A DNA stretch of 64,000 nt, from IMG/VR virus record IMGVR_UViG_3300032213_001637, positions 45,022 through 109,021 of that record; one strand, given 5' to 3'. The notes under the pieces were generated by a model that saw only the letters and a list, made by a program, of their open reading frames with translations, was not told the DNA's origin and ran no database searches. A program made the position numbers and the translations under genes. This document shows, in pieces, positions 203 to 18,245 of the stretch. This stretch comes from a virus. Position 1 is the first letter of the stretch, and every line of letters begins with the position of its first letter.

Positions 203-1519
203 ATGAGTAAACCATTATGTGTTATACAAGGACCAATCTTTAGTCGAAGTGGCTATGGTGATTGGTCCAGAGAAGTCGCTAAAAGCATTCTACGTTACAA
301 TAAGTACGATCTACGTATTGCAACTACCAAGTGGGGTGCCAATCCAATTAAACGTTTTCAGGATGACTTGGATTGTAATGATCCTCTCAATCTTGCATTG
401 TTTGATAAAATGTTGAAGGAACCTTTAAATAGACAACCCGATTTGTTTATTCAAATCGCAATACCAAACGAGTTCAAACCGATTGGCAAATACAACATCG
501 GAATGACAGCTGGTATTGAAACAACAGCTGCTGCTGGAGAATGGATTGAAGGATTAAACAAGATGGACATGAACATTGTTACATCTCGTCATTCCAAAAA
601 GGTATTTGATGAAGCAGACTATACCAAGGAGTATAAGGATGGAAGTGGACGTAAAGAGCAATTACGTAATAACAAACCTATGGAAATATGTTTCTGGGGA
701 GCCAATACCGAAATCTATAAGATTACCAATGAAAAAGTTGAGTCTGTAGAAAAGGTATTAAATCAAATTCCTGAAACCTTTGCGTTCTTGTTTGTTGGTC
801 AATGGACTCACGAAAATCCATTCGCTGATCGAAAAGATATTGGTAACTTGATTAAGACGTTTCTTACTACGTTTAGAAATCGTCCGCAAAAACCATGTTT
901 GATTCTCAAGACAAGTGGAACTAACTACTCCAAAGTTGATAAGGATTCAATTTTGAAGAAGATTAAAGCGGCAGAATCACAGGTTGACGGTGATAAACCC
1001 AACGTGTATTTAATCCATGGAGAACTCAATGATGTTGAAATGAACGCACTATTTAACCATGAAAAGGTTAAATGTCATGTCAGCTTTACACATGGTGAGG
1101 GTTTTGGTCACCCATTGTTGTTGGCATCACTCAGTGGAAAACCCGTTCTAGCTCCAGATTGGAGTGGACATTTGGATTTCTTGGAATCTAACAAAGAAGG
1201 TTTGTTGCAAGGAAAGGTCGATGTTATCGATTCCGCATCAGTTAACCAGTGGTTGATCAAGGAATCTGCATGGTTTACAGTATCATATAGTTTAGCAGAA
1301 GAACGATTGAAACAGTATTATTTCAGTATGAATCAAAGGACTAAAGATAACGCACTTGCATTGTCTGAACGTAATGCTGAACAATTTTCTACACATGCAA
1401 TGGATAAGAAACTACATGAAATTTTAGAAAAATATGTTCCTCAATTTGCGGTAGAACAAAAGATAGTTATTCCTCAACTGAAAATGAATATACCATCTGT
1501 TCCTCAAATTAATGTATGA
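203..1519 (+). CDS. GT-B (GT4-like) glycosyltransferase
   Basis: N-terminal SRSGYG, RKDIGNLIKTF, and C-terminal HGEGFGHPLLLASLSGKPV..WSGHLDF are typical of GT4. ATG at 203 preferred over TTG at 191. Confidence 0.85.
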   Translation: MSKPLCVIQGPIFSRSGYGDWSREVAKSILRYNKYDLRIATTKWGANPIKRFQDDLDCNDPLNLALFDKMLKEPLNRQPDLFIQIAIPNEFKPIGKYNIGMTAGIETTAAAGEWIEGLNKMDMNIVTSRHSKKVFDEADYTKEYKDGSGRKEQLRNNKPMEICFWGANTEIYKITNEKVESVEKVLNQIPETFAFLFVGQWTHENPFADRKDIGNLIKTFLTTFRNRPQKPCLILKTSGTNYSKVDKDSILKKIKAAESQVDGDKPNVYLIHGELNDVEMNALFNHEKVKCHVSFTHGEGFGHPLLLASLSGKPVLAPDWSGHLDFLESNKEGLLQGKVDVIDSASVNQWLIKESAWFTVSYSLAEERLKQYYFSMNQRTKDNALALSERNAEQFSTHAMDKKLHEILEKYVPQFAVEQKIVIPQLKMNIPSVPQINV

Positions 1520-2166
1520 AACCGTTTATTTCGTATTTAGTTACTTGTCATAATGAGGGTGTGCAACTGCGTGCCCTTTTATCTCTTCTTTTAAAGTACT
1601 CAGAAGGAAATCAAATTGTAGTATTAGATGATTATTCTACAGATCCAATTACTTTAGAAGTATTACATGAATATCAATCAGTTGTTGGTGTTAAATTGGT
1701 TGCACACCATCTCAATAAAGATTATGGTACACATAAAACTTATGGCACACAACAGTGTGACGGTGAATATGTGTTTCAAATTGACGCAGACGAATTGCCC
1801 AGCGAAATTTTGTTGGCTAACTTATACGAACTTCTCAGATCAAATCCAAAATGTGAAATGTTTTGGGTTCCACGTGTAAATAATTTCATTGGTGTAACCC
1901 CAGAAGATATCAAAAATTATGGTTGGCAAGTAAATGAAAAAGGTCACGTCATGTGGCCAGATTATCAATCTCGTATATACAAAAACCAACCGAATATTCG
2001 GTGGGAACGTAAACTACATGAAACCATCATAGGATTCAAAGAGTTTACACGTATTCCCGCAATGGAAGAATTGTCGTTATATCACACCAAGACAATTGAA
2101 AAACAACGTAACGATAACAAGAGATACATGAATGAATTTTCACTAGAAGATAATGTTAGAAAGTAA
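1516..2166 (+). CDS. GT2-family glycosyltransferase
   Basis: ISYLVTCHNE, VLDDYSTD, DxD motif QIDADE, WPDYQSRIYKN..W..KLHE. Confidence 0.85.
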   Translation: MKPFISYLVTCHNEGVQLRALLSLLLKYSEGNQIVVLDDYSTDPITLEVLHEYQSVVGVKLVAHHLNKDYGTHKTYGTQQCDGEYVFQIDADELPSEILLANLYELLRSNPKCEMFWVPRVNNFIGVTPEDIKNYGWQVNEKGHVMWPDYQSRIYKNQPNIRWERKLHETIIGFKEFTRIPAMEELSLYHTKTIEKQRNDNKRYMNEFSLEDNVRK

Positions 2167-2168
2167 TC

Positions 2169-2885
2169 ATGGAAAAGACACCCGTATATTGTTTATATTC
2201 ATCACAGATGGACGAAATATTTCACAGACATTTCCATCCGTCTTTTATAAAGTTTAATAAATATAATTATGATCTTCGTATCTTTGAAACCAATGTTAAT
2301 GGAAACGGAGATTATAATACAGATGAATACATTGAATGTTTACACAATAAAACAAGGTTGATGTTACATACTACAAAAGAAAATCTTGGTAGAACAATAA
2401 TATGGACCGACATTGATATTAAGTTTTTCTCTACTATTGATTTAACATCGTTTGATAAAACATTTACGGCGTTAAAAGAAGATGAAAATCCATCAGATAC
2501 CTTTGTAAATCCAGCATTTTGTAAAATAGAATGTAACGATATAATGGTAGATTTTTTTGAAAAACTATTAATTAGTTGTAAAAATAATGATGTACATGAT
2601 ATGGATGTTATCAATTACTTTGCGGATACCATTCCTAGTATCGAAGTTGGTACATTTGATTTTCGATATCTTCAATACACATCATTGTCATATAGAAATG
2701 ATACAATCCAATGTAATATATGTTCAAATAACCATGGATGTTATAAATGTACACATCAATTATCAAATTTAGATACAATTGACACGTCAAAAATAATACT
2801 TTATCATGCAAATTGTACAATTAACACCGATAGAAGTACCAGCATGGAACTAAAACTAGAACAACTAAACTATCTATCAAAATGA
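2169..2885 (+). CDS. Nucleotide-diphospho-sugar transferase (GT-A, GT77-like)
   Basis: DxD motif WTDIDI, VNPAF, and C-terminal LYHAN; glycan-cluster context. Confidence 0.6.
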   Translation: MEKTPVYCLYSSQMDEIFHRHFHPSFIKFNKYNYDLRIFETNVNGNGDYNTDEYIECLHNKTRLMLHTTKENLGRTIIWTDIDIKFFSTIDLTSFDKTFTALKEDENPSDTFVNPAFCKIECNDIMVDFFEKLLISCKNNDVHDMDVINYFADTIPSIEVGTFDFRYLQYTSLSYRNDTIQCNICSNNHGCYKCTHQLSNLDTIDTSKIILYHANCTINTDRSTSMELKLEQLNYLSK

Positions 2886-3694
2886 TTACAGTTACAATAG
2901 GATCAAATGGAAGGTTTGGCAATCAAATGTTTCAATACGCATCGTTGATGGGTATTGCAGACAAACAAAATTGTTTATACGGCGTTGATTATTCAGGTGA
3001 AAATACAATACCGTGGAATGAATTTACAGATAATGAAATTATTAACAAACAAACGTTTGTGTTGCCAAAAGCATTTCAACTATCTGCATTACAATGTAAT
3101 GAAAAGTATCGAATGGTTCATGAAGGACAACACTTTCACTTTAACCAAGACCTTTTTAAAATTGGTGATAATGTACATCTTCATGGGTATTTTCAAACCG
3201 AAAAGTATTTTAAACACATAGAATCTAAAGTTAGGTCGGAATTTACATTTAGACCAGATATTGTCAATACAGTAAATGACTATTTAAAAAATAAACAATC
3301 ATATGAAACTGTTTCTATTCATGCTCGTAGAGGTGATTATGTACATTTGTCACATCATGGTACATGTGATTTAACATACTATACCAATGCCTTAAGTCAT
3401 TTTACGGACAAATCATATAATTTTATAGTTGTATCAGATGATATTGATTGGGCAAAATCAACATTTAGTGGATGTGATAACTTTTTTGTGTCAGAATATC
3501 GTAACCAATTTGTTGATATGTGTATTATGACTCAATGTAATCACAATATTATTGCTAATAGTACATTTAGTTGGTGGGGAGCGTGGTTAAATGCAAATCC
3601 AAATAAAAAGGTTATTTCACCATCACGATGGTTTGGTCCAAATGTTCTCTTAGACACAAAAGATTTATATATTCCAGATTGGATTATAATATGA
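2882..3694 (+). CDS. Alpha-1,2-fucosyltransferase (GT11)
   Basis: GRFGNQMFQYA, GYFQTEKYF, SIHARRGDY, VVSDDIDW and IIANSTFSWWGAWL are all GT11 signature motifs. Confidence 0.93.
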   Translation: MITVTIGSNGRFGNQMFQYASLMGIADKQNCLYGVDYSGENTIPWNEFTDNEIINKQTFVLPKAFQLSALQCNEKYRMVHEGQHFHFNQDLFKIGDNVHLHGYFQTEKYFKHIESKVRSEFTFRPDIVNTVNDYLKNKQSYETVSIHARRGDYVHLSHHGTCDLTYYTNALSHFTDKSYNFIVVSDDIDWAKSTFSGCDNFFVSEYRNQFVDMCIMTQCNHNIIANSTFSWWGAWLNANPNKKVISPSRWFGPNVLLDTKDLYIPDWIII

Positions 3695-4521
3695 AAATTC
3701 CAACAGAAATTCAAACAATACAAAAAGCAAAAACAATCACGGATGGATTGATTCCATTACAAGAGTGTACGTTTATTATACCCGTTTGCATCGAAAGTGA
3801 AGATAGAAAGAAGAACTTTACTATTATATATGATTATCTACGTCGTAACTTTGAAACAAACATTATTGTATACGAATGTTCCAAAGAACCTATCGTTTCA
3901 TCTTTGATTAAAGATGATGTAACTTATATACATCAAAACATCCCAGATGAGTCATTTCATAGAACACGGTATCTAAACCGAATGTTAGCGTTATCAAACA
4001 CCACAGTTACGGTAAATTATGACGCAGATGTAATTCTACCCATCGAATCATACCTAATGGCATACAAAAAAATAACTCGTCAAAATCATGATTTGGTATA
4101 TCCGTTTGCTATTGGAAAATTCCAAAAGAAAGTTGATGCATCTGGAAGAGAAAAGTTGTTAAATCAATCATCTGTTGTAGAACTTACACCTCAAGATTAC
4201 TCAGAGTGTGTTGCAGAATATGGTCACTGTCAATTTTTCAAAACATCATCTTATAAAAATTATGGTTGGGAAAATGAAAACTTTATATCGTATGGTCCAG
4301 AAGATAGAGAACGATATGACAGATTCAAGAAGTTTAATACCGTGGTTACGCACCTTGATAAAGGGTTTGTATATCACATCGAACATAGTCGTGGATCAGA
4401 CTCCAGCGAAAAAAATCCTTATTTCAAATCCAACAATGATTTATATAAAAAATTGAGTGATATGAATCAAGATCAATTAAATACCTATTATAACGGCGTT
4501 GAGTATTTGAAGAATTATTAA
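3691..4521 (+). CDS. GT2/GT7-like (galactosyltransferase-type) glycosyltransferase
   Basis: TFIIPV, NYDADV (DxD), GWENENFISYGPEDRE (GT7 C-terminal motif). ATG at 3691 overlaps the upstream stop. Confidence 0.75.
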   Translation: MKIPTEIQTIQKAKTITDGLIPLQECTFIIPVCIESEDRKKNFTIIYDYLRRNFETNIIVYECSKEPIVSSLIKDDVTYIHQNIPDESFHRTRYLNRMLALSNTTVTVNYDADVILPIESYLMAYKKITRQNHDLVYPFAIGKFQKKVDASGREKLLNQSSVVELTPQDYSECVAEYGHCQFFKTSSYKNYGWENENFISYGPEDRERYDRFKKFNTVVTHLDKGFVYHIEHSRGSDSSEKNPYFKSNNDLYKKLSDMNQDQLNTYYNGVEYLKNY

Positions 4522-4524
4522 GTT

Positions 4525-5235
4525 ATGAAGATTGCCATTATTACGTTAGCTACTAATAAATACAAATCGTTTTTACACCCGTTGTGGACATCGGTTAAAA
4601 CACACTTTTTGCCAAGTGCACAAAAAGATTTTTACTTTTTTACGGATGAAAAGTTAGAATGGTTTGACGACTCAATTAAATGGTGTCAAATTGACCATCA
4701 ACCTTGGCCATACATTACATTAAAACGTTTTGAGTTTATATCATCGTATCTAAAAGAACTAACTCAATATGATTATGTATTCTATGTCGATAGTGATATG
4801 GAATTTGTAGATACATTAAGTCGTTTTGATATTGGAGATAAAAAATATTACGCTGTTTGTCATCCATCTGTTGTAGCTAATTTAAACTTCTGGCCTGTTG
4901 AAACCAATTCTAATTCAACCGCATATATTCCAGAACGTCACCGTTGTGTTTACGTTCAAGGATGTGTGTGGGGTGCAAAAGGAAGTCACATCGAATATAT
5001 GGTCAGTTTGATGAAGAATAACATCAATATAGATCTTCAGAACGATATCATTGCGGTATGGCATGATGAATCTCACCTTAACAAATTCATAGTTGATCAT
5101 CGAACCGAAGTAGCTATTTTGAGTCCTAGTATGGCATATCCAGAACATTGGAATTTGCCTGTAAATAAATTGATGATACATAAAGATAAGAATATGGTTG
5201 AGTATCCAAGATTCAAAGGAGCCTCACCAACATGA
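4525..5235 (+). CDS. GT6-family (ABO/alpha-1,3-Gal/GalNAc transferase-like) glycosyltransferase
   Basis: IAIITLATNKY, FFTD, WPYITLKRF, YVDSD and AVWHDESHLNK (GT6 hallmark with the catalytic Glu). Confidence 0.92.
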   Translation: MKIAIITLATNKYKSFLHPLWTSVKTHFLPSAQKDFYFFTDEKLEWFDDSIKWCQIDHQPWPYITLKRFEFISSYLKELTQYDYVFYVDSDMEFVDTLSRFDIGDKKYYAVCHPSVVANLNFWPVETNSNSTAYIPERHRCVYVQGCVWGAKGSHIEYMVSLMKNNINIDLQNDIIAVWHDESHLNKFIVDHRTEVAILSPSMAYPEHWNLPVNKLMIHKDKNMVEYPRFKGASPT

Positions 5236-6194
5236 AAATAGTTATTTGGGGTCATCCTCTATATTCACATACTCATTCGTATGTTCATTCTTCATACTAC
5301 AAAGCATTATCTCATATGGGTCATGAAGTACATTGGTTTCATGACAAAGATTATCCCAAAGATTTTGACTATTCCGATTGTATTTTTATCACCGAAGGAT
5401 TTGCGGATCAGAACATTCCTCTAAATAATACAAGTACATACTTTGTAATGTATTGTCCGTCACCAAAAAAGTATTTGGAAGCGGGTGTTAAACGTTATAT
5501 TGACGTTAGATGTGTAGCAAAAGATCATAAAGATCACATACACGAATACTCAATAGATAAAACAATAACTCAAAAGGTTGGTCCATCATGTTATTATGTA
5601 CCAAAAACCAACCAACAAGTACACATAAAAAACAATTATGTAGATTACATCATTGATGATTTTGATAAGTTTTACTTGAGTTGGGCAACCAATTTATTGC
5701 CTGAAGAATTTAACCTCGACGACGTTTATCTTCCCAGAGAAAACGCAATTTATTTCTGCGGAAGTCTTTCCAATTCAGGTGTATGTGAAAACATGAGCAA
5801 TTGGCTTCCATTTATGCAAGAGTGTAAACGTAATAATATCACGTTTTATCACAACGATCCATGGAAAAATCCTTTGTCAGATGATAAAGTAAAAGAACTT
5901 GTTCAAAAATCATTATTGGGAATTGATATTCGTGGACCAGAACACGAAAGAACTGGCATCATTACATGTCGAATATTTAAAAACGTCAGTTATGGTCATT
6001 TGGGATTGACCAATTCCAAAGAAATATACAATGAAATGGAAGGAAATTGTTTATACAATCCAAATCCATCAGAGTTGTTTAATATTGGTATACGAAACCG
6101 AACAAACTATGATTTCATCAAAAAATCAATGTTGTATGTAAAAGAGAATCATACTTATGTGAACAGAATTAATAGTCTATTTTCAATTTTATAA
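5232..6194 (+). CDS. Putative GT-B glycosyltransferase (CgeB/Glyco_trans_1_2-like C-terminus)
   Basis: CRIFKNVSYG and the terminal ENHTYVNRI resemble the CgeB-like C-terminus; cluster context. Confidence 0.6.
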   Translation: MKIVIWGHPLYSHTHSYVHSSYYKALSHMGHEVHWFHDKDYPKDFDYSDCIFITEGFADQNIPLNNTSTYFVMYCPSPKKYLEAGVKRYIDVRCVAKDHKDHIHEYSIDKTITQKVGPSCYYVPKTNQQVHIKNNYVDYIIDDFDKFYLSWATNLLPEEFNLDDVYLPRENAIYFCGSLSNSGVCENMSNWLPFMQECKRNNITFYHNDPWKNPLSDDKVKELVQKSLLGIDIRGPEHERTGIITCRIFKNVSYGHLGLTNSKEIYNEMEGNCLYNPNPSELFNIGIRNRTNYDFIKKSMLYVKENHTYVNRINSLFSIL

Positions 6195-6197
6195 TTT

Positions 6198-6803
6198 ATG
6201 TTTAGATCACAAGCACATCAAGATCAATTTGCACACAAGATTCTAAATGGAAAACACAATGGTTATTTCGTAGACATTGGAAGTTGTGGTGCAGTAGATC
6301 ATAACAATAGTTACTTTTTTGAATCCATCGGATGGAAAGGTATTTGCGTTGAAATCGAAAAAGGATACGCTCCTACATATTCATCAAGGACATGTCAATT
6401 TATAAATCAAAACGCACTAACAGTTGATTATAAAAATCTATTCGAAAGTCTTTCTTATCCATCTGTGATTGACTACCTCTCACTTGATATAGACCAATTT
6501 AGTACTGACGCTCTTAAATTGTTACCACATGACTCTTATCAATTTAGCGTTATTACTATTGAACATGATGCATACATTTATGGAGACACATTTCGTATAC
6601 CACAACGTGAATATCTAAAAAATCTTGGATATCATCTATTAGGATCAAATGTACGTGTTCCAGATTTACATTTTAAATCATTAAGTACATTAAATCATTT
6701 GAATAATAATGGGTTTGAAGATTGGTGGGTACATCCTTCTTTGAATAAAAATAATTACTATTTCGAAAGTTCATTTCCAGAAAATCTAATTGCACAATTG
6801 TGA
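6198..6803 (+). CDS. FkbM-family SAM-dependent methyltransferase
   Basis: SQAHQD, GYFVDIGS, NSYFFE..GWKGICVE, IDYLSLDID, ITIEHD, EDWWV. Confidence 0.85.
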   Translation: MFRSQAHQDQFAHKILNGKHNGYFVDIGSCGAVDHNNSYFFESIGWKGICVEIEKGYAPTYSSRTCQFINQNALTVDYKNLFESLSYPSVIDYLSLDIDQFSTDALKLLPHDSYQFSVITIEHDAYIYGDTFRIPQREYLKNLGYHLLGSNVRVPDLHFKSLSTLNHLNNNGFEDWWVHPSLNKNNYYFESSFPENLIAQL

Positions 6804-7738
6804 AATTATTTTTAGTTAACCATAAAGTAAAAAATTGTGGCGTGTACCAATATGGTAAACGTGTTGCATCTATTATTTCCAAGTCAAAAAACCTAATCGT
6901 TCATTATTTGGAAATGGATAACCGAGATGAATTTAAAAAAGAAGTTGATCTGCATAAACCTCAAGTGATTGTTTATAATCATCTCACAGGTACAATGCCG
7001 TGGGTTGACGGTGAGTATGTTAACCAACTTCGTCAATTGGGAATTAAACAAGGAACTATTGTTCACAATGTTGCGTACTCTACATTCTTTGATTTTTATC
7101 TACACCAAGATCCCAATTATAAACCTAACGAAAACAATTATCGGTTATTGAGACCATTGTTTCAATATACCAACAAGACCAATTTAAATCCAAACAAACT
7201 AAAGATTGGGTCATTTGGATTCGGATTTGCATCAAAACAATATGAAAGTCTATGTGCGTGTATACGAGACAATTTTCATCGAACCACATTTCCAGTTGAA
7301 TTAAGGTTACATCTTACACATTCACATTTCTGTGAAAATTCCAGAGACATTGAAACGATTAAGTTTGTATCAAATAGAATACTAAACAATCCTAATATCA
7401 CTTTGAATATTACCACAAATTTTATCAGTGATGACGAACTGTTGGAATTTCTTGCCGGTAATGATCTCAATATCTTCTTCTATCAAAAATATCCAAGTTA
7501 CAATGGTATATCATCATCCATAGATTACGCATTGTCAGTAAAACGTCCTATTGCGATTTGTCGTAGCAACATGTTTTCACACATTTGGAATACAACTCCA
7601 TCTATTTGCGCCGAAGATTCTTCATTAAAAGAAATAATCAACAACGGTTTTGGTCCTTTAGAACACTATTATAATCAGTGGTCACATTCAAATTTCATTA
7701 AAGTATTCGAAGACAATATTAAAAATGTAGTGTTATGA
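6800..7738 (+). CDS. Putative GT-B glycosyltransferase
   Basis: CGVYQYG at the N-terminus, IGSFGF, DLNIFFY..GISSSIDYALSVKRPIAI. GTG start overlaps the upstream stop. Confidence 0.6.
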   Translation: MKLFLVNHKVKNCGVYQYGKRVASIISKSKNLIVHYLEMDNRDEFKKEVDLHKPQVIVYNHLTGTMPWVDGEYVNQLRQLGIKQGTIVHNVAYSTFFDFYLHQDPNYKPNENNYRLLRPLFQYTNKTNLNPNKLKIGSFGFGFASKQYESLCACIRDNFHRTTFPVELRLHLTHSHFCENSRDIETIKFVSNRILNNPNITLNITTNFISDDELLEFLAGNDLNIFFYQKYPSYNGISSSIDYALSVKRPIAICRSNMFSHIWNTTPSICAEDSSLKEIINNGFGPLEHYYNQWSHSNFIKVFEDNIKNVVL

Positions 7739-8481
7739 TAACGTTGGGAGTTTTAGTTACATGTTATAATGAAGTACGAGCGGTAGAATATTCCTTAACA
7801 TATTTCAGGAAAATATACCGCTCTACAAATATTTACCTTACCACCGAAAGTCACGATTCAGACTACAATAGTTTATTGAATCTAAATAACATTAGTATCA
7901 ATCATGTTGACGATACAATGTATTTTATAAAAGAAGTCACAGATCAGAACTTTTTAGAGCCATATTTTCAAGAAAAAATACTATTTGCAACACGATCATT
8001 CTTAAATCGTGTCAAACAAGCAATTGAATACTGTCAAAGTGATTATTTGTTATTAATGGATCCTGACACCCTTGTTCGTGGACCATTATCAATTCCACAA
8101 GGAGCCAAGTTATTAGGATCTAGAATAAATTGGGGATTGCCTATGGCGTTGAGAACCATATTGACACAAACACCCGGCGCAATTGATATTAACTGTTGGG
8201 GAGCAACTCCAGCAATAATTCATTGTGATACTTTTTTGAAATCATATAAGTATGTGATGGAACAAGATCCAACCTTTTTACCACGTATTGCAAAAACGTT
8301 TTATGCTATTTTTGCACATGACGTAATTCTCCCAATTTTATTTGCATTACAAGGAGAGCAAGAAATATTTAATAGTCAGATTATCGAGTGTGGTCGATAT
8401 CCGTATTGGCAACAAACATCACATCCAATAGTACATCAATTTAAATATTTATATGACAACAATCGTAACATCGTTTATTAA
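7735..8481 (+). CDS. Putative GT-A glycosyltransferase
   Basis: LGVLVTCYNE N-terminus and DxD motif LMDPD. Confidence 0.55.
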   Translation: MITLGVLVTCYNEVRAVEYSLTYFRKIYRSTNIYLTTESHDSDYNSLLNLNNISINHVDDTMYFIKEVTDQNFLEPYFQEKILFATRSFLNRVKQAIEYCQSDYLLLMDPDTLVRGPLSIPQGAKLLGSRINWGLPMALRTILTQTPGAIDINCWGATPAIIHCDTFLKSYKYVMEQDPTFLPRIAKTFYAIFAHDVILPILFALQGEQEIFNSQIIECGRYPYWQQTSHPIVHQFKYLYDNNRNIVY

Positions 8482-8520
8482 CGGTATACTACAAATCGGT
8501 GTAAATGTTACATAAAACTT

Positions 8521-9339: not shown

Positions 9340-9362
9340 TATTTACTATTAAAATAATAATT

Positions 9363-10112: not shown

Positions 10113-10729
10113 ACGAAACATTTTTTGCAGAACATAAAGAGGATCAATTTCTTAGATTAAAATACTTTCCTGATTATAGTTACAAAGGTACTTTGGTTGA
10201 AGTCGGTGGAGCAACTCCCGAGTTTATATCTGTATCTCGTCACTTCACATTAAACGAATGGAGAACAGTTATTGTAGAACCAAATCCTACATTTGCTAAA
10301 CAACACCGTGATATTGGAAATGAAATATACGAATATGCACTATCTGACACTGAGGAAGATGATGTTGATTTTACATTGGTACATATCACCGGAGGCAATG
10401 TCACCGATCACGCATTTTCTTCTTTAAAGATTAAAGACTCATATCAGTCAATATCAAATGGATGGGTGAATAAATTAAATAAAACCCAAATTAAAGTTAA
10501 ACAACGTCGTTTGGACACAATAATTAAAGAAGCGAACATCGAACATATAGACATTCTTTCAGTTGATACCGAAGGTTGGGAATTAGAAGTTATGAAAGGA
10601 CTTAGTTTACTTAGACCCAAGGTAATCATGTTGGAAAATCTATTTAATGAAAACTCGTATCGTGAATATATGACCGAAAGAGGTTATAAGTTTGATACAC
10701 GAATTAAAGACTGTGACATTTATCTATGA
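10109..10729 (+). CDS. FkbM-family methyltransferase
   Basis: LVEVGG, IVEPNP, RRLDTI, IDILSVDTEGWELEVMKG, VIMLE. Confidence 0.88.
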   Translation: MNETFFAEHKEDQFLRLKYFPDYSYKGTLVEVGGATPEFISVSRHFTLNEWRTVIVEPNPTFAKQHRDIGNEIYEYALSDTEEDDVDFTLVHITGGNVTDHAFSSLKIKDSYQSISNGWVNKLNKTQIKVKQRRLDTIIKEANIEHIDILSVDTEGWELEVMKGLSLLRPKVIMLENLFNENSYREYMTERGYKFDTRIKDCDIYL

Positions 10730-11673
10730 AAATTTCAATTATTGGACCCGGAATTATGCCCATACCTCCTAAAGGATGGGGTGCTGTAGAATCTCTGATA
10801 TGGGATTATAATATCGAATTAACCAAACTTGGTTACGATGTGCAAATTGTCAACACACAAAATCGTCAAGAGATTATTAATCAAGTTAATCAATATAATC
10901 CTGACTTTGTACATCTTCAATACGACGACTTGTTTGATGTGTTACCATATATCAAATGTAAACACAAAGCCGCAACTACCCATTATGGCTACCTAGAACA
11001 ACCACATCGTTACGGTGGATATGCTCGAATCTTTGAAGCATTTCTTCGTGGAGACTTTAACATCATCTGTTTATCAGAAGGTATCAAAAACGTATATAAA
11101 AAATATGGTGCCAATGAAAATAGATTGTACATAGTGTGTAACGGTGCAAGACAAGACATGTTCCGATATACCTCCACGCCATCTAAACCCGAAAAGAGCG
11201 TTTATCTCGCTAAAATCACAGATCGAAAACGTCAGTGGATGTATCAAAACATCAATGACATTGACTTTATTGGCAATAAGGACGATAATCGGTTTAATTT
11301 CTCTCGTCCAAACTATATTGGAGAATGGGATAAGCCTACATTGTATGACAATCTAACCAATTATGCCAACTTGGTATTATTGAGTGATGGAGAAGCAGAT
11401 CCACTTGTGACTAAGGAAGCGTTAATTGCGGGTCTTGGAGTGGTTATTTCAGAATGTTCTGTTGCTAATTTGGACTTGTCAAAACCATATATTAGTGTAA
11501 TATCTGAAGATAAAATTTACGATTTAAACTACATTCGTGGCGTTATTGAAACCAACAGACAACAATCGTTGTTACACCGTGATGAAATTCGTCAATATGG
11601 AATTACTAATTTTGCGTGGGAAAACGTTGTGAAACAATATATTAATGTAGTAAATCAAATTATCTCAAAATAA
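10726..11673 (+). CDS. GT4-like glycosyltransferase
   Basis: IPPKGWGAVESLIWDY and LLSDGEADPLVTKEALIAG (EX7E motif). Confidence 0.85.
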   Translation: MKISIIGPGIMPIPPKGWGAVESLIWDYNIELTKLGYDVQIVNTQNRQEIINQVNQYNPDFVHLQYDDLFDVLPYIKCKHKAATTHYGYLEQPHRYGGYARIFEAFLRGDFNIICLSEGIKNVYKKYGANENRLYIVCNGARQDMFRYTSTPSKPEKSVYLAKITDRKRQWMYQNINDIDFIGNKDDNRFNFSRPNYIGEWDKPTLYDNLTNYANLVLLSDGEADPLVTKEALIAGLGVVISECSVANLDLSKPYISVISEDKIYDLNYIRGVIETNRQQSLLHRDEIRQYGITNFAWENVVKQYINVVNQIISK

Positions 11674-11676
11674 GTT

Positions 11677-12762
11677 ATGTACGATTATTTAATTGTAGGC
11701 AGTGGTATGTTTGGATCAGTGTGTGCAAGAGAACTCACTGATAAAGGTTACAAGTGTTTGGTGATTGAAAAACGCAATCATATTGGTGGCAATTGTTATA
11801 CTGAAAACAAAGATGGTATTAACATTCACAAGTATGGCGCTCACATATTTCACACATCCAATAAAGAGATTTGGGATTATATCAATAAGTTTGCGAAGTT
11901 TAATAACTTTGTAAATCATGTCAAGGTCAATTATAACGGTCAAATTTATTCTTTTCCGGTTAACATGATGACACTGCATCAAATCTATGGAGTAACCACA
12001 CCAGAACAAGCAAAAAAGAAACTAGATGAAGTTCGTATTCACAATGAAAATCCAAAGAACTTAGAAGAGTGGATACTATCGCAAGTAGGAAAAGAAATAT
12101 ACGAAATATTCATCAAAGGATATACCACAAAACAATGGGGAAGACATCCCGTAGATTTACCATCTTCCATTATTAAACGTCTTCCTATTCGATTTACCTA
12201 CGATGATAGTTACTATGGACTTGACTATCAAGGTGTTCCTATCGGTGGTTACACTCAAATATTTGAAAAGTTATTGGATGGAATCGAAGTACGGTTGAAT
12301 GAGGACTATCTTCAAAACAAAGAGTCACTTAACAATGTCGCTAAAAAAGTTATTTATACCGGTTCAATTGATGCATACTATAACTACTGTTTTGGAAACT
12401 TGAACTACAGAAGTCTAAAGTTTGAAACTGAACGAATTGAAATACCGGATTATCAAGGAAACGCAGTTGTCAACTATACAGAACTTCATGTTCCATTTAC
12501 CCGAATTCTTGAACATAAACATTTTGATCCTGTTAATACAAACTTCACCTATATTACACGTGAATATCCAAGAGAATATGGTGAAGGACTTGAACCATAT
12601 TATCCTATAAATGATAAAGTTAATACACCAATATATGAGAAGTATAAAACATTAACTGAAAAAGAATCGAATGTTATATTTGGTGGTCGGTTGGCTGAAT
12701 ATAGATACTATGATATGCATCAAGTGATTGGTTCCGCATTACACACCTGTAAAAAACTATGA
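11677..12762 (+). CDS. glf: UDP-galactopyranose mutase
   Basis: LIVGSGMFG FAD motif, HIGGNCY, HKYGAHIFHT, YTTKQWG, PYYPIND, GRLAEYRYYDMHQVI. Confidence 0.97.
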   Translation: MYDYLIVGSGMFGSVCARELTDKGYKCLVIEKRNHIGGNCYTENKDGINIHKYGAHIFHTSNKEIWDYINKFAKFNNFVNHVKVNYNGQIYSFPVNMMTLHQIYGVTTPEQAKKKLDEVRIHNENPKNLEEWILSQVGKEIYEIFIKGYTTKQWGRHPVDLPSSIIKRLPIRFTYDDSYYGLDYQGVPIGGYTQIFEKLLDGIEVRLNEDYLQNKESLNNVAKKVIYTGSIDAYYNYCFGNLNYRSLKFETERIEIPDYQGNAVVNYTELHVPFTRILEHKHFDPVNTNFTYITREYPREYGEGLEPYYPINDKVNTPIYEKYKTLTEKESNVIFGGRLAEYRYYDMHQVIGSALHTCKKL

Positions 12763-13664
12763 AAATACAAATTGTTACACACCTTCTTCCCCACGAATTA
12801 GATGAATTTGAACGTCAATTGACCGTATTGAGTCAAGAAATGATTGATTGTCATGAAGTTACCTTGGATGTTACATTGAATTTGAACACAGTTGATTGGA
12901 ACAAAACAAAAATTCCAAAGGATTTCTTTATTGAGAAGTTCGAATCATTGTCAAAGTACGTTACTCATACCAGTTGGGCAAGAAACTACATCTTTGATGT
13001 AGATGACCATGGTACTTGTAGAGGGATCAACGACAAACGTCGTAATAGCATACGTAAATACGGTAAAGATGTAGACGCATTTATATACTTGGATTCAGAC
13101 TTGGTATTTCCTCCAGCAACTTTGTCATATTCGATACACTGTGCTACTCAGGTAAAGAACAAATATTATATTATTTCACCTCAAATCACCAAAATTTGGG
13201 ATCAAACATGGGACCATTTGGTAAATCATCAGTTCATTAACAACAAATATGGAAGTGAAAAGACGATCAATCCATATTTTGAAGTCAACCGTAAATCATA
13301 TTTGAATCACATCAATCTTATCAAATGTGATCCTACCAAATTTGGTGGTGGATGGTTCAATTTAATTAGTTCCAACCTATTAACATTTACAGATATACCC
13401 GATGCACTTGGACCCTATGGCGTTGATGATACCTATGTTATGTTCGCGGCTCAAATCATGAAAGTCAATAATATTGATTTCCAACAATATTTAATGGAAC
13501 ACATTATTGTAGCTGAGAACTATTTATTGAGACACAATTCATACAAAGATTACATAACCTATTTCGAAGACAGAAACAACTTCAAAAGCAAGGCGGAGGC
13601 ATCATTAGGCGACTGCCTAAGAGACTTTGTTAACAAAAACCAATACACATTCAAACATCTATGA
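12759..13664 (+). CDS. Putative GT-A glycosyltransferase
   Basis: DxD motif IYLDSD, KFGGGWF, GPYGVDDT. Confidence 0.55.
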   Translation: MKIQIVTHLLPHELDEFERQLTVLSQEMIDCHEVTLDVTLNLNTVDWNKTKIPKDFFIEKFESLSKYVTHTSWARNYIFDVDDHGTCRGINDKRRNSIRKYGKDVDAFIYLDSDLVFPPATLSYSIHCATQVKNKYYIISPQITKIWDQTWDHLVNHQFINNKYGSEKTINPYFEVNRKSYLNHINLIKCDPTKFGGGWFNLISSNLLTFTDIPDALGPYGVDDTYVMFAAQIMKVNNIDFQQYLMEHIIVAENYLLRHNSYKDYITYFEDRNNFKSKAEASLGDCLRDFVNKNQYTFKHL

Positions 13665-14014
13665 TAAACCTGATAAACATACTAAATACTACATTTATTG
13701 GAGTTGCATTTTTGGTTGTGTGGTTTCATACAGAAGCGTTTCTTGAATACAGTGGTTTGTTTAAAATGAAACGTCTTTTTAAAATAGATGAATTTGAAAA
13801 AGCACAAGAAAACGATTTCAGTTTAGAATACTTACAGTGGATAAAACAAACCTATCCAAACTTCTTCACTAAACTTGTCAATTGCCCGTGGTGTATTGGG
13901 TTTTGGTTTACCGTATTATCTTCATGGATTTTCTCCACGTTTTACATATTTCCCGTAACTTATGTGTTTACACTTGTTATATATTTACTTATCGTAAATA
14001 AGTTTTTTAAATAA
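13661..14014 (+). CDS. Small membrane protein with CxxC (DUF1360-like)
   Basis: Hydrophobic segments and the motif LVNCPWCIGFW. Confidence 0.55.
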   Translation: MINLINILNTTFIGVAFLVVWFHTEAFLEYSGLFKMKRLFKIDEFEKAQENDFSLEYLQWIKQTYPNFFTKLVNCPWCIGFWFTVLSSWIFSTFYIFPVTYVFTLVIYLLIVNKFFK

Positions 14015-14015
14015 T

Positions 14016-14309
14016 ATGATACTGGTTCAAAACTTCACCGAATTTTACAACATATTAAAAACGCACAATGGAATACCCAATTCAGTTTCTAAACTGAAAG
14101 AGTATGTATTATTGGTAGAACGTTTTAAAAATACGTGCAGTTGTAGAGGTACCGAAAAACAACGTGTAAAAAACGAGTGTGAATCCCAATACCGATTATT
14201 GGTTATAACCGAAGTTAGTAACCATATCAATCTATTCAAAAACTCTTTGGGTGATGGTAACATTAAATTTATTCAAAATAATGTTATCATCCAAGAGTTT
14301 AATGTTTGA
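14016..14309 (+). CDS. Hypothetical protein
   Basis: 97 aa ORF coupled to the upstream gene; contains CSC. Confidence 0.6.
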   Translation: MILVQNFTEFYNILKTHNGIPNSVSKLKEYVLLVERFKNTCSCRGTEKQRVKNECESQYRLLVITEVSNHINLFKNSLGDGNIKFIQNNVIIQEFNV

Positions 14310-15272
14310 TTATAGATAACTTTCAATAGTTGTCTTTAAAGCGTTTGAAAAGTCTGTAAGGTTCATTTGTCCAAACTTCTGTTCATAATCAAAGGTCTCA
14401 ATCGAATAACGCAAGTCATGTCCCTTGCGATCTTCTACATAGTTGATATAATCATAGTCGATCTTAGTGTTAGTAACATCTTCATAAACAGATTTAATAT
14501 GTTCAATCAACTCAAGATTGGTTAATTCATTCTTTCCGCCAATCAAATACTGACTTCCTACATCCCCAGTTTCAAGAACGTCCCAAATACAGTTAACGTG
14601 ATCTTTTACATAAATCCAATCACGTACATTTTGACCAGTTCCATATACAGGAATTGGTTCACGGTTTTTCAACTTACGAATACAAGTTGGAATTAACTTT
14701 TCACCATTTTGTCTTGGTCCAAAATTATTGCTACAATTAGTAATGATAGCAGGTAACTTATATGTCTTAACATAACTACGTACAAGTAAGTCACTTGCAG
14801 CCTTTGTGGCAGAATATGGACTGTTGGGTCGATATGGACTATCTACAGTAAATGAAGACTCCTTTGCATTCAATGATCCATACACTTCATCAGTGGATAT
14901 ATGAATAAACTTCTCTACCTTTCCATAATCATATATCGCTTTAATCAAATTAAATGTTCCCAAAACATTGGTGGTAACAAACGGATCGGGAGAATAAATT
15001 GAATTATCAACATGAGTTTCTGCGGCAAAGTTTACTACATGAGTAATCTCAAACTTATTCAACGTCTGCCACAGAATAACACCATCGTTAATATCCGCAA
15101 CATAATGTTTATATCGTGGATCAACATTAAACTGTAAATTCTTATTGGCAGCATATGTTAACTTATCAAAGTTAATGATATTGTCAATATCAGGATTGTT
15201 CAATAACTTCTCTACAAAATGTGATCCTATAAAACCACATCCACCTGTGACTAAAACGTTTTTCTTATTCAT
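14310..15272 (-). CDS. rmlB: dTDP-glucose 4,6-dehydratase
   Basis: VLVTGGCGFIGS, DKLTYA, NFAAETHVDNS, HISTDEVYG, PYSATKA, DRKGHDLRY. Confidence 0.96.
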   Translation of the reverse strand: MNKKNVLVTGGCGFIGSHFVEKLLNNPDIDNIINFDKLTYAANKNLQFNVDPRYKHYVADINDGVILWQTLNKFEITHVVNFAAETHVDNSIYSPDPFVTTNVLGTFNLIKAIYDYGKVEKFIHISTDEVYGSLNAKESSFTVDSPYRPNSPYSATKAASDLLVRSYVKTYKLPAIITNCSNNFGPRQNGEKLIPTCIRKLKNREPIPVYGTGQNVRDWIYVKDHVNCIWDVLETGDVGSQYLIGGKNELTNLELIEHIKSVYEDVTNTKIDYDYINYVEDRKGHDLRYSIETFDYEQKFGQMNLTDFSNALKTTIESYL

Positions 15273-16528
15273 ATAATTTCAAATGTGGGACACGGAACAA
15301 TAAAATGACCACCAGCCATCAAATACGGTGCTTCTCTCCTCTTGAATTCATCAATAAAATGCCAAGGCAAAATCAAAAGATAATCTGGTCTAGCCTTTCT
15401 CATTTCATTTTCAGAATATATAGGAATGTCAGTGCCAACTGTTCTTAGTCCAAATTTATATGGACTACGTTCAGCCGCACCATCAATCAACCGTTTATCC
15501 AATCCAAAGTACTGTAATAATGTATTTCCCTTAGTAGATGCTCCGTATACCCAAATCTTTTTACCTTTCAACTTCTCTTGTTTGATGAAGTTATACGTTT
15601 TAATCTTCAACTCTTGAAGTTTCTTATAGAAATCCATGTAAAATTCAATAGTGTTTGCACCAATCTTGTTTTCATATTCCAAAATAGAGTTTACACGATA
15701 ACGAGCGACATCACGATATGGCGCAGTAGCGAAAGAAGTAACCTTAGCGACATCTTTCTGTAGATATACTCTAAATGATCCACCGTTAACATCATTCAAC
15801 TCACAATCAACAATTTTAAACTTGGCTCTATCAGCAACATGTTTAAATGAATGTAATGAATAGTACATTAAATGTTCATGACAAATGTTATCAAATGCCA
15901 TTTGTTGAATCATCAACGGAGTATAACTCATTTGAACCACAAACATTCCTTCATCACCCAACACGTCATAAATCTCATTCATGAACGCAACTGGGTCAGG
16001 CAAGTCATAGAACATCGCAATACATGTGATTACGTCACACTTACGTCCTTTAAAAATACTTCGATCAAATGCGTCCTTAGAGAAGTAGTCTTGAATTACC
16101 TGATCAGCAAACTTAACACTCTCTTTGGTATATGAATCATCCGCTGGATCAATTCCTAGACGAGCATATGGTGTGGGAACATAGTTCAACAACGTTCCAT
16201 CGTTACACGCAATATCCAACCATAACGGAGTATCACATGGAATGTGCACATTGATACAACTATCAACCACGTTTTTAAGTTGATTACGCATGGTTTGATT
16301 AGTACCAGAACGATACCAATACTGACCATACATTTTGTTTGGATCGGCGCCCTGTTCTAACTGTACCAACTTTGATGTCGGTGAAAACATCAACTTCATT
16401 TCAGACTTATAATCGTCAGATGGTTGTTTTTTTACAAAGTTTGAAATGAACAAATTACCCAACGTAAACAACGGAGTTAATGTATCATTTGATACCCGAC
16501 AATTTGTAACTTTTTCAGTATATTTCAT
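15269..16528 (-). CDS. NDP-hexose C-methyltransferase (TylCIII/NovU/TcaB9-like)
   Basis: YWYRS, LDIACNDGTLL, FDNICHEHLMYYS, GGSFRV, YGASTKGNTLLQY, PDYLLILPWHF. Confidence 0.9.
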   Translation of the reverse strand: MKYTEKVTNCRVSNDTLTPLFTLGNLFISNFVKKQPSDDYKSEMKLMFSPTSKLVQLEQGADPNKMYGQYWYRSGTNQTMRNQLKNVVDSCINVHIPCDTPLWLDIACNDGTLLNYVPTPYARLGIDPADDSYTKESVKFADQVIQDYFSKDAFDRSIFKGRKCDVITCIAMFYDLPDPVAFMNEIYDVLGDEGMFVVQMSYTPLMIQQMAFDNICHEHLMYYSLHSFKHVADRAKFKIVDCELNDVNGGSFRVYLQKDVAKVTSFATAPYRDVARYRVNSILEYENKIGANTIEFYMDFYKKLQELKIKTYNFIKQEKLKGKKIWVYGASTKGNTLLQYFGLDKRLIDGAAERSPYKFGLRTVGTDIPIYSENEMRKARPDYLLILPWHFIDEFKRREAPYLMAGGHFIVPCPTFEII

Positions 16529-16529
16529 A

Positions 16530-17390
16530 TTATTTCCAGTTCTCTAAACAGTAATCTAATGCTTCATCTACAGTTCTCATTTTAATTCCAGTTGATAACA
16601 ATTTTTGATTGTTCATAACACAGTTGGAACGTGGTGTTTTTGCGGCTGTGGTATAAAACGATTCTTCATTATCAAAAAATTCGAAGACTTTATCTTTAGC
16701 AATAGTCTTTTGCATTTTTTCAATAACTTGTTTTGTAGTTATAAATCCAGTATTAGTAACGTTGTAAATACCATACGGTACATCTCGCGTAATAGTTTCA
16801 ATACAAGCACGTACAAACTCTTGTTTATTAGATATAGAATTTTCAGCATCTAATAGTTTTTTATAATTCAACATTTTGGATAGATAATTACGAGGATTGT
16901 CAATATCTTCAAATGGAATTCTCAATCGCCAAATATAATGTTTAGGAGAATTCTTTATGATGATATTTTCCGCCATAGCCTTTGTTCCACTATAAAAGCT
17001 ACAATTGTTTTGTTCAAAACTGAAATTGGGAGGATCAAATTCGGTAAACGGACTTCCATCACTACGCCGTCCAGTATAAATACACCCACTTGACACATGT
17101 GCAAACGTAATATTATTGTTTCCACAAAACGTTGACAATATAGTAGGTAGTACAACATTACCATAAATGGTGTTATGTTTATCAGTTTCACACGCATCTA
17201 CATTTGGTTTGCCAGTGTATCCAGCACAATTAATGATTGCAGTTAACTTTAACGATTTGTGTAGAAGTTGTAATTGTGTGTATGTAATGTCCCTAGAAGG
17301 AATATGTGTACGAGTTGGAATTCCTTTTTGAAATAGTTGTTTATAAAACTCTTTTCCAACATAACCATTTGAACCTAATAATAAAATCAT
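16530..17390 (-). CDS. dTDP-4-keto-6-deoxyhexose reductase, NRS/ER (3,5-epimerase/4-reductase)-like
   Basis: LLGSNGYVG, NCAGYTGKPNVDACE, SSGCIY, SFYSGTK, LRIPF, RSNCVM. Closer to the NRS/ER type than to classical RmlD. Confidence 0.82.
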   Translation of the reverse strand: MILLLGSNGYVGKEFYKQLFQKGIPTRTHIPSRDITYTQLQLLHKSLKLTAIINCAGYTGKPNVDACETDKHNTIYGNVVLPTILSTFCGNNNITFAHVSSGCIYTGRRSDGSPFTEFDPPNFSFEQNNCSFYSGTKAMAENIIIKNSPKHYIWRLRIPFEDIDNPRNYLSKMLNYKKLLDAENSISNKQEFVRACIETITRDVPYGIYNVTNTGFITTKQVIEKMQKTIAKDKVFEFFDNEESFYTTAAKTPRSNCVMNNQKLLSTGIKMRTVDEALDYCLENWK

Positions 17391-17405
17391 AACCGGGAAT
17401 ATATA

Positions 17406-18245
17406 TCAAAGAATAGATTCCAAATAATTTCTATATTCGGATTTTGGTGTTTTTTCAATTATAATTTTGTATTGATCCACATTGATAAAGCCATTGTTTA
17501 AACAATCTTCTTCAATACAAGCAATTTTGATACCCTGACGTTCCTGAATAGTTTGAACATAACTACTAGCTTGTGCTAATGTAGTTGGTGTTCCAGCGTC
17601 CAACCATACAGATCCACGTTTCATTAACGTGGCATACAACTCATTTCTTTCCAAAAACACTTTGTTTACGTCAGTGATTTCCAATTCACCTCTAGCAGAT
17701 GGTTTTAACTTTTTAGCAATACCAACCACCGCATTATCATAAAAATATAAACCCGGAACCGCATATTTACTCTTAGGAACCTCTGGTTTTTCTTCTATTG
17801 ACTTTACTCGTCCATCATAAGAAAACTCAACCACACCATAATCCCGTGGGTTTGTTACTGAATATGCAAAGATTTGTGCCGGTGAAAACAACGTATCAAC
17901 CAAGGTTCCAAAAATAATGTTATCACCCAATATCAAAGATACACAATCCTTCTTAATAAAATCTTCAGCGATCAAAAATGATTGAGCAATACCTTTTGGT
18001 TGTGGTTGTACACCATATACAATCTTTAATCCCAAATGTTTTCCATTTCCAAATAACGCCTTGTACTCAGGAATCCATTTGGGCGTAGATATAATCATGA
18101 TTTCTCGGATTCCTTTGTTAATCAATGTTGACAAAGGATAATAAATCATGGGTTTATCAAATACAGGCAACAACTGTTTGTTACATGTACATGTAAGTGG
18201 ATATAACCTACTACCAGTTCCACCAGATAAAATAATGCCTTTCAT
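17406..18245 (-). CDS. rmlA: Glucose-1-phosphate thymidylyltransferase
   Basis: KGIILSGGTGSRLYPLT..NKQLLPVFDKPMIYYPL, LILGDN, EEKP, SARGELEITD, WLDAGT. Confidence 0.97.
   Translation of the reverse strand: MKGIILSGGTGSRLYPLTCTCNKQLLPVFDKPMIYYPLSTLINKGIREIMIISTPKWIPEYKALFGNGKHLGLKIVYGVQPQPKGIAQSFLIAEDFIKKDCVSLILGDNIIFGTLVDTLFSPAQIFAYSVTNPRDYGVVEFSYDGRVKSIEEKPEVPKSKYAVPGLYFYDNAVVGIAKKLKPSARGELEITDVNKVFLERNELYATLMKRGSVWLDAGTPTTLAQASSYVQTIQERQGIKIACIEEDCLNNGFINVDQYKIIIEKTPKSEYRNYLESIL

Follow-up and report, generated by a model that had tools for sequence, protein, structure and literature searches.

A sugar-gene island and TibC-type enzymes suggest cytoplasmic virion glycosylation in a large uncultured T4-related myophage

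TibC and Aah of Escherichia coli are soluble cytoplasmic enzymes that glycosylate serines of an elongated, repetitive protein whose gene is adjacent; they put the first sugar on the folded adhesin in the cytoplasm, without a lipid carrier. In mycobacteriophages, the study of Freeman et al. (2023) reportedly found a few transferases near structural genes, with the C-termini of capsid and tail-tube proteins modified. Two papers cite mycobacteriophages Che8, Corndog and Myrna as a precedent for virion glycosylation (PMC12619734, PMC12801897), and Megavirinae carry clade-specific clusters of 6-33 genes for the glycans of their fibrils (PMC10117803). Sugar-gene islands are also common in abundant aquatic T4-like phages, and for twenty years they have been taken, without test, as modifiers of host lipopolysaccharide (LPS). 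Such sets in cyanophages and pelagimyophages have been assigned to modification of the host O-chain or to DNA glucosylation (PMC12801897, PMC7029224); the glycosyltransferases (GTs) of pelagimyophages are located among tail-fibre genes (PMC7029224), and the 13 transferase genes of S-SCSM2R were called a record (PMC12801897). Here we analysed a 64,000-nucleotide stretch of viral DNA (positions 45,022 to 109,021 of the IMG/VR record IMGVR_UViG_3300032213_001637; hereafter the window), which carries a sugar-gene island and a tail module with TibC-type enzymes beside a collagen-like fibre gene.

The source contig is a linear record of 109,021 bp, of which the window is the last 64 kb; its completeness according to CheckV (35%) implies a genome near 300 kb. 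The contig belongs to a large uncultured T4-related myophage, as (i) its family-B DNA polymerase shares 45% identity with the enzyme of Microcystis phage Mel-JY01 and ~28% with the enzymes of T4-like cyanophages, and (ii) it also encodes a ribonucleotide reductase, a DnaB-like helicase, a UvsX-like recombinase, a T4-type baseplate protein and a tail sheath. The best reading, to which we give roughly even chances, is virion glycosylation: a cytoplasmic system of the phage's own would modify proteins of the particle, chiefly the collagen-like tail fibre. For the tail module, cytoplasmic glycosylation of the virion fibre is well supported; for the ~20-kb island, the same role is plausible but unproven.

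TibC-type enzymes beside a collagen-like fibre gene

The tail module lies at the end of the window, on the minus strand. One of its genes (58617-60713) encodes a protein of 698 amino acids (aa), matched by the Pfam families GT1, GT4 and GT9, in which a GT4/GT1 domain (residues 1-300) is followed by a TibC/Aah-type protein O-glycosyltransferase domain (residues 339-689). The latter residues matched residues 24-386 of TibC (PDB 4RAP) in a phmmer search with an E-value of 3e-70 and 240 bits. A second TibC-type catalytic domain constitutes a 271-aa protein (57824-58639), which shares 31% identity with the C-terminal half of the larger protein (E 5e-41). The catalytic aspartate of the LGD motif, which is replaced by alanine in the PDB entry 4RB4, is kept in both proteins (SLGDCIAWFPY in the larger and QLGDGIAWLPY in the smaller, as compared with TLGDLLGWFPY in TibC). 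Likewise, all four cysteines of the iron-finger motif (CxxC ... WCP ... FEC) align in the two proteins. Judged from these alignments, the 698-aa and 271-aa proteins are true homologues of the TibC/Aah family.

The fibre gene enters the window with its C-terminal 286 aa (63140-64000, by translation), which end in an intramolecular S74 chaperone (Pfam Peptidase_S74, 43 bits); its repeat is built of GAQ triplets with GSSGTSG, and the contig ends within this repeat. Directly downstream lies the gene for an 801-aa protein with a GT1 domain (60710-63115; Pfam Glyco_trans_1_4, 31.8 bits), and directly downstream of the GT genes of the module comes that for the 1102-aa tail sheath (54420-57728; Pfam Phage_sheath_1 and Phage_sheath_1C). 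The gene order (fibre, 801-aa GT, GT4-TibC fusion, 271-aa TibC-type protein, sheath) is kept in two relatives, G1 and G2. At the position of the fibre gene, G2 (IMGVR_UViG_3300044624_002142) has a single open reading frame (ORF) of 4390 aa (2656-15828) with 919 Gly-Thr-Ser triplets; Ser and Thr make up 50% of this protein, and its repeats are broken by five or six short globular segments.

A TibC-like domain was found in 356 relatives in IMG/VR. We compared the best 80 TibC-like loci with 80 control loci of similar size, scoring runs of 15 or more Gly-X-Y triplets no further than 10 kb away. Such a run occurred near the TibC-like gene in 42 of the 80 loci, mostly with 40-64% Ser+Thr, whereas only five of the 80 controls had one, and three of these five themselves contain a TibC-like gene. 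Near-duplicates occur among the 80 TibC-like loci, but the association extends to enzymes that share only 37-46% identity with the TibC-like domain of this contig. A homologue of the 801-aa protein adjoins the TibC-like genes in 22 of 71 distant loci. Among isolated phages, a TibC-type gene was found only in Mel-JY01, where it adjoins a gene for a 'structural protein'; three huge uncultured phages also carry one. The Mel-JY01 protein is labelled 'methyltransferase FkbM' in GenBank, which would have joined FkbM and TibC in a single chain; we dropped this argument, as Pfam gives GT1, TibC_1st and GT9 and no FkbM. In the papers available to us, we found no report on TibC-type enzymes in phages or on their pairing with collagen-like fibres.

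Two side observations concern the same module. The sheath domains are confined to the last 280 of the 1102 residues, and the long stretch before them shows 83-90% conservation among relatives; the gp18 sheath of T4 has 659 aa. Several related contigs and TibC-like loci (L114, L119 and L121 included) end within ~6 kb of the TibC-like gene, some of them inside a collagen-like run, and collagen-like repeats may break assemblies.

The sugar-gene island and its contig

The whole island spans ~20 kb and starts ~1.5 kb before the window. Twelve independent IMG/VR contigs carry the kinase-like gene at its far end (72-90% identity) with identical neighbours and with the island in the same place, which rules out a chimera with a bacterial locus, a possibility raised in an earlier, sequence-only reading of this DNA. 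The contig is matched along its whole length by two long collinear relatives (172 and 134 kb). The two ends of the island are conserved, one comprising the kinase-like gene, RmlA, the reductase, RmlB, a 97-aa protein, DUF1360 and a 301-aa GT, and the other comprising the GT7C-like, GT11, GT2 and GT1 genes and a further GT1 gene upstream. The middle is variable among the relatives, with the C-methyltransferase, Glf, GT6, WcbI and others gained or lost. The G+C content is slightly lower in the island than outside (30-34% vs 35-40%).

The sequence-only reading had counted about 11 GT-like genes, and this number holds: 11 lie within 191-13664, by evidence of profile, fold or homologue family. It had also set the island between genes for a dUTPase and a deoxynucleoside monophosphate (dNMP) kinase. 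Both are present, but the kinase label is weak, and the dUTPase-like gene lies inside the island rather than at its edge, because a further GT1 gene (GT1_323; contig 43565-44536, i.e., 1456-485 bases before the window) is found upstream of it. This upstream GT1 weakly matches PF20706, a GT4 family of conflict systems (28 bits). The 229-aa dUTPase-like protein, encoded on the plus strand, starts 488 bases before the window and has its C-terminal part in the window (1-201; Pfam dUTPase, 42 bits; NCBIfam dut, 61.7 bits, below the cut-off); its identity in relatives is 34-38%.

From here to the 97-aa protein, all genes are on the plus strand. The first encodes a 442-aa GT-B protein of GT1/GT4-like type (191-1519; Pfam Glycos_transf_1, 25.7 bits, just below the cut-off of 26.4), homologues of which, placed as here relative to the GT2, are present in 15 of 73 distant C-methyltransferase loci. 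The GT2 itself (216 aa, 1516-2166) matches Pfam Glycos_transf_2 with 49 bits. The following 238-aa GT-A (2169-2885) is a distant relative of Nucleotid_trans (PF03407), recognised through remote homologues, 27 of 29 of which match that family; its DxD (D81, D83) is invariant, and no homologue was found in G1 and G2. Pfam identifies a GT11 of the alpha-1,2-fucosyltransferase family (270 aa, 2882-3694; Glyco_transf_11, 118 bits) and a GT6 (236 aa, 4525-5235; Glyco_transf_6, 84 bits), between which lies a galactosyltransferase-like GT-A of 297 aa (3628-4521) with matches to phrog_15655 (5.6e-67), to phrog_1721, 'galactosyl transferase' (1e-4), and, weakly, to Glyco_transf_7C.

Two further proteins belong to families without Pfam entries and adopt the GT-B fold according to AlphaFold2 and Foldseek. 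For the one of 320 aa (5232-6194; predicted local distance difference test (pLDDT) 91), none of 461 homologues has a Pfam family, and the Foldseek matches are all GT-B proteins (FUT9, OtsA, SenB, T4 BGT and EarP); it is 54-62% identical to genes of Synechococcus phages DSL-LC02, SynMITS9220M01 and Bellamy. The one of 312 aa (6800-7738; pLDDT 94; 463 homologues) matches best the GT of Chlorella virus NY2A (3OY2), followed by BshA and SenB, with template modelling (TM) scores of 0.6-0.69. A GT4 of 315 aa (10726-11673; Pfam Glyco_transf_4, 24.7 bits, below the cut-off) is weakly paralogous to the N-terminal domain of the GT4-TibC fusion, and the GT2-like protein of 301 aa (12759-13664) is part of the conserved island core, with 526 homologues, some of them matching PF00535, and with 64-94% identity in nearly all related loci that reach its position. 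The HtrL/YibB family is represented by a 249-aa protein (9363-10112; Pfam HtrL_YibB, 74 bits). The 248-aa protein encoded at 7735-8481 has no Pfam or PHROG match; in the ESM Atlas it falls in virus-only clusters, the nearest named cluster being GT2 at 0.95, which is only a lead to a relationship with GT2. In total, the 109-kb contig carries ~15-16 transferase genes.

Of the two FkbM methyltransferases named in the sequence-only reading, one is firm (206 aa, 10109-10729; Pfam Methyltransf_21, 65.8 bits), while the other (201 aa, 6198-6803) stands at the level of motifs only: it has FkbM-like motifs and a PHROG methyltransferase match at E 0.035, its BLAST comparison with the firm FkbM was not significant, and it adjoins FkbM homologues in three loci (L024, L026 and L091). 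The WcbI-like gene, glf and the deoxythymidine diphosphate (dTDP)-sugar cassette, likewise recognised from the letters, were all recovered by profile. The WcbI-family protein, a polysaccharide-modifying enzyme (272 aa, 8521-9339; Pfam WcbI, 74 bits), had no homologue in related loci and, among the relatives examined, occurs in this contig only. Glf, the uridine diphosphate (UDP)-galactopyranose mutase (361 aa, 11677-12762), matches Pfam GLF with 260 bits and TIGR00031 with 408.7 bits (cut-off 303.75), and is missing in some relatives. Two small genes close the plus-strand series, one for DUF1360 (117 aa, 13661-14014; Pfam DUF1360, 24.3 bits), which has two helices and is the island's only membrane protein in a hydropathy scan, and the other for the 97-aa protein (14016-14309), conserved in relatives and without a family match.

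The dTDP-sugar cassette is on the minus strand. RmlB, dTDP-glucose 4,6-dehydratase (14310-15272; TIGR01181, 370.4 bits), and RmlA, glucose-1-phosphate thymidylyltransferase (17406-18245; TIGR01207, 366.7 bits), both exceed their equivalog cut-offs (365.1 and 360.65, respectively). Between them lie a nucleoside diphosphate-hexose C-methyltransferase of 419 aa (15269-16528; Pfam Methyltransf_14, 149 bits, plus Methyltransf_13 and Methyltransf_23), with 272 relatives in IMG/VR and absent from the relatives L005, L012 and L015, and an RmlD-fold 4-ketoreductase (16530-17390; Pfam RmlD_sub_bind, 79.6 bits). By gene content the dTDP-L-rhamnose pathway (RmlABCD) is not complete and the cassette is not a rhamnose pathway, as (i) no RmlC was found in the cassette or elsewhere in the Pfam-scanned island, (ii) the reductase is far below the RmlD equivalog level (TIGR01214, 69.5 bits against a cut-off of 224), and (iii) the C-methyltransferase is inserted. 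From the known chemistry of these families, the product is probably a dTDP-C-methyl-6-deoxyhexose. The P-loop kinase described as dNMP kinase-like (18242-18907, minus strand; Pfam P-mevalo_kinase, 28.3 bits, below the cut-off) overlaps the start of rmlA by 4 bases and is conserved along with the cassette; it has no PDB match, and its sole phage match is to the N-terminal part of the dNMP kinase of Thermus phage P23-45.

We searched for export and lipid-carrier genes in the 109-kb contig and in ~78 kb more from collinear relatives, i.e., ~190 kb of a genome of ~300-350 kb, each related contig representing 35-49% of its genome. No initiating transferase, flippase, polymerase, ligase or ATP-binding cassette (ABC) exporter was found on the contig or the relatives searched, in line with what the sequence-only reading had noted for the island, tiny membrane protein included. 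Among all 128 ORFs of the contig and those of the two collinear relatives (G0, G1 and G2), only a tape-measure-like protein has at least five hydrophobic segments. Neither PF02397 (Bac_transf) nor PF00953 (WecA/MraY) matched in five related contigs (G000-G004, 109-172 kb each), and PF00005 (ABC_tran) gave only sub-threshold P-loop matches there; control genomes were matched by the profiles. Two GtrA/GtrB candidates were rejected: a 4-helix protein (contig 6550-6924) belongs to no Pfam family, and a 318-aa 3-helix protein (contig 17876-18832) has only a sub-threshold match to DUF3130. In 80 viral loci, few polytopic ORFs of a credible kind lie near the C-methyltransferase cassette.

Several features elsewhere on the contig are recorded here. 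Seven minus-strand genes have the plus-strand octamer TATAAATA at a distance of 3-5 bases from their start codons (window 52101-52108 and 54342-54349; contig 12699, 14837, 17791, 22109 and 26653, before the window). In gene orientation it reads TATTTATA-N3-5-ATG, and none is in the island; it may serve leaderless transcripts as a promoter or act in translation, because the spacing is too short for a normal promoter plus leader. In the 95-base gap between the last GT gene of the tail module and the sheath gene, the octamer occurs on both strands (window 57789-57828), and the minus-strand copy, located 93 bases before the start of the sheath gene, is a candidate for a late promoter of the T4 type. 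Just past the island, a UvdE-type UV damage endonuclease gene (window 20296-21222; Pfam, 138 bits) is kept in all relatives. A DUF3431 protein (98 bits) is encoded far from the island (contig 8644-9303); DUF3431 is also present on one remote homologue of the 238-aa GT-A, and the family may be glycan-related. A 142-aa cytidylyltransferase-like protein (PF01467, 68 bits; contig 22124-22552), encoded among large late-looking genes and without a homologue in G1 and G2, may activate a nucleotide-sugar or -alditol. No match was obtained when the first 20 kb were compared by megablast with 50,697 phage records, and the window has no tRNA genes. An affiliation with the 'moraphage' lineage was set aside, as moraphages are described as lacking much of the replication machinery present here (PMC12619734).

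The acceptor of the glycan

The island supplies sugar donors: RmlA and RmlB make dTDP-4-keto-6-deoxyglucose, which the C-methyltransferase and the RmlD-fold reductase would convert to a C-methyl-6-deoxyhexose, and Glf provides UDP-galactofuranose. If the glycan is genuinely built on the virion, the two TibC-type enzymes, encoded with two further GT-B domains between the fibre and sheath genes, would prime Ser/Thr on the proline-free Gly-X-Y fibre. The remaining transferases, including the 11-12 soluble ones that the island contributes together with methyl- and probably acyl-decorating enzymes, would then extend and cap the chains before assembly. The virion would exit the cell with a strain-specific glycan coat, and the variable middle of the island would therefore give each lineage a different glycan. 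What was found is virus-encoded transferases and donor pathways without export machinery, varying among relatives. The earlier proposal that a glycan is made in the cytoplasm directly on a phage substrate is partly supported, by the lack of export genes in the DNA searched and by the TibC/Aah enzymes encoded beside the fibre gene.

The island and the fibre module are physically linked in other lineages, which is suggestive. In four loci of at least three lineages (L037, L055, L058 and L075), homologues of island genes (GT1_323, GT1_442, GT2, RmlB-like, C-methyltransferase and FkbM) lie within 5-9 kb of a TibC-like gene, and in three of the four a Ser/Thr-rich collagen-like gene sits beside the latter. 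A statistical claim for this adjacency was rejected, as 4 of 73 loci is about what random placement would give if both features lie in one genome of 150-300 kb.

That result is one of several that count against virion glycosylation by the island. The support consists of genes and genomic association, and sugar has been seen on no such virion. In this contig 36 kb separate the island from the tail module, and about two thirds of the genome lies outside the contig. No heptose-donor pathway was found, there being no GmhA-type SIS_2 gene in the five contigs; only the 142-aa cytidylyltransferase-like gene mentioned above is present, elsewhere on the contig. The island may not be expressed late, because its first genes belong to a series that opens with a PD-(D/E)XK nuclease gene, and the dTDP arm is co-oriented with, and overlaps, the nucleotide-kinase-like gene; scans for the T4 late-promoter motif (TATAAATA), sigma-70 promoters and terminators gave no usable timing signal for it. 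Finally, GT11, GT6, HtrL, WcbI and Glf are families characteristic of LPS and capsule loci, the soluble GTs of which act on undecaprenyl-linked intermediates, and a host could supply both priming and export.

The last point leads to the possibility that the island remodels the host envelope: its soluble GTs would make a phage-specified O-antigen, capsule or S-layer glycan on the undecaprenyl carrier of the host, the initiating enzyme and exporter of the host would do the rest, the altered surface would block superinfection or grazing, and the TibC module would be a separate system. We regard this as doubtful, though a serious contender. It is the published reading for S-SCSM2R, P-SSM2 and S-SCSM1 (PMC12801897) and for pelagimyophages (PMC7029224), and the Rml genes, too, are typical of O-antigen and capsule loci. 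The separation of the island from structural genes, its place beside genes of nucleotide metabolism and the unseen part of the genome also suit it. Nevertheless, no gene for priming, flipping, polymerising, ligating or exporting was found in the five related contigs, and for a lytic host to be given a new polymer with some ten linkages in a single latent period, by way of exporters adapted to a different glycan, would be costly and is without a shown precedent. Remodelling also leaves the TibC module unexplained, as the same phage has cytoplasmic protein glycosyltransferases beside a Ser/Thr-rich fibre, and island-type genes adjoin TibC modules in other lineages. Alternatively, the glycan might be put in the cytoplasm on a host protein, a phage protein outside the virion, a lipid or a small molecule, for instance to disarm a defence or as a soluble decoy, and never get to the virion or the cell surface. 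None of the analyses identified the acceptor, and the weak match of the upstream GT1 to a conflict-system family fits such a role; we nevertheless consider it improbable, since there is no positive evidence for any such acceptor and an island so large and hypervariable fits a product that is exposed on a surface and diversified by selection.

Glycosylation of DNA, which the sequence-only reading had allowed as a second substrate, has been weakened to the point of being very improbable. The GTs would here act on hydroxymethylated bases, as in T4 and the phages with arabinosyl-hydroxymethylcytosine, with the dUTPase-like and kinase-like genes in the pathway. These two genes do border or lie within the island, two GT-B models of the island resemble the T4 beta- and alpha-glucosyltransferases by fold (TM 0.42 and 0.63), and a thymidylate synthase (TS) homologue with ~120 extra residues is encoded on the contig (5171-6331). 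Yet the fold matches are generic, being among hundreds of GT-B matches, and the kinase label is weak. The TS homologue, moreover, looks like an ordinary thymidylate synthase rather than a deoxycytidine monophosphate hydroxymethylase, because it keeps PPCH, the Asn that specifies deoxyuridine monophosphate (dUMP; PFNIASY) and a complete TS C-terminus, and its aligned core is a close match to bacterial TS enzymes (252.6 bits to 3UWL). This dUMP-type gene is the only TS-family gene on the contig, and no hydroxymethylase for T4-type DNA glycosylation was found there. To our knowledge, more than ten transferases with C- and O-methylation and galactofuranose go far beyond any known DNA glycan. The TS homologue is unusual in another respect: it has 386 aa, the extra residues form two insertions in the conserved core, and the G1 and G2 copies are only 41-45% identical.

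Comparison with known systems

The TibC-TibA and Aah-AIDA-I pairs of E. coli (PDB 4RAP/4RB4) resemble the tail module in that the 698-aa and 271-aa proteins are homologous to their enzymes. They differ in that the neighbour here is a collagen-like fibre instead of an autotransporter, one enzyme is fused to a GT4 domain, and the contig has more than 12 further transferases and no heptose pathway that we could find. A bacterial parallel for the acceptor is BclA of the Bacillus anthracis exosporium, a collagen-like Gly-X-Thr filament O-glycosylated in the mother-cell cytoplasm with deoxyhexose oligosaccharides, which bear a methylated rare-sugar cap and draw on donors from rml-type genes; BclA is a spore protein, glycosylated by unrelated transferases and without a TibC-type enzyme.

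In mycobacteriophages, as proposed here, phage-encoded soluble transferases act on virion proteins in the cytoplasm without lipid carriers; the contig differs from them in that its 20-kb island lies away from the structural genes and brings nucleotide-sugar synthesis of its own, and in the family of its priming enzymes. The Megavirinae clusters and chlorovirus capsid glycosylation (PMC10117803, PMC9614988) also combine nucleotide-sugar pathways and transferases, without the host secretory route, on virion fibrils. However, their hosts are eukaryotic, and the likeness to the contig is by fold only (the best match of the 312-aa GT being the chlorovirus GT).

Further counterparts are the 'LPS' or 'cell-wall' gene sets of T4-like cyanophages and pelagimyophages (P-SSM2, S-SCSM1, S-SCSM2R and Bellamy), comparable islands in comparable phages. 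For instance, genes 208-228 of Bellamy (L194) form an analogous sugar island with an aldolase, a kinase, a nucleotidyltransferase, two epimerase/dehydratases, GTs, a carbamoyltransferase, a methyltransferase and a UDP-glucose dehydrogenase; one gene of this island, with a product annotated as hypothetical, is a homologue of the 320-aa GT-B gene, at 54% identity. If virion glycosylation is genuine, it bears on host recognition, non-productive adsorption, resistance to grazers and proteases, and the distinctness of related phages that share a host; it would also interest glycoengineering, as complex O-glycans could be made on a defined repeat protein in the cytoplasm and without a carrier. With more reservation than confidence, we further suggest that large aquatic T4-like phages build, in the cytoplasm, a heteroglycan with galactofuranose, a C-methyl-6-deoxyhexose, O-methyl caps and some ten linkages on TibC-primed, mucin-like, proline-free collagen fibres, as a counterpart of the fibril glycosylation of Mimivirus, and that the 'LPS genes' of cyanophages and pelagiphages might be virion-coat genes. 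Set against the literature, and against S-SCSM2R in particular, the contig is notable for its larger number of transferase genes (~15-16 on 109 kb), its C-methyl deoxysugar branch and the co-occurrence of both with a module of TibC-type enzymes.

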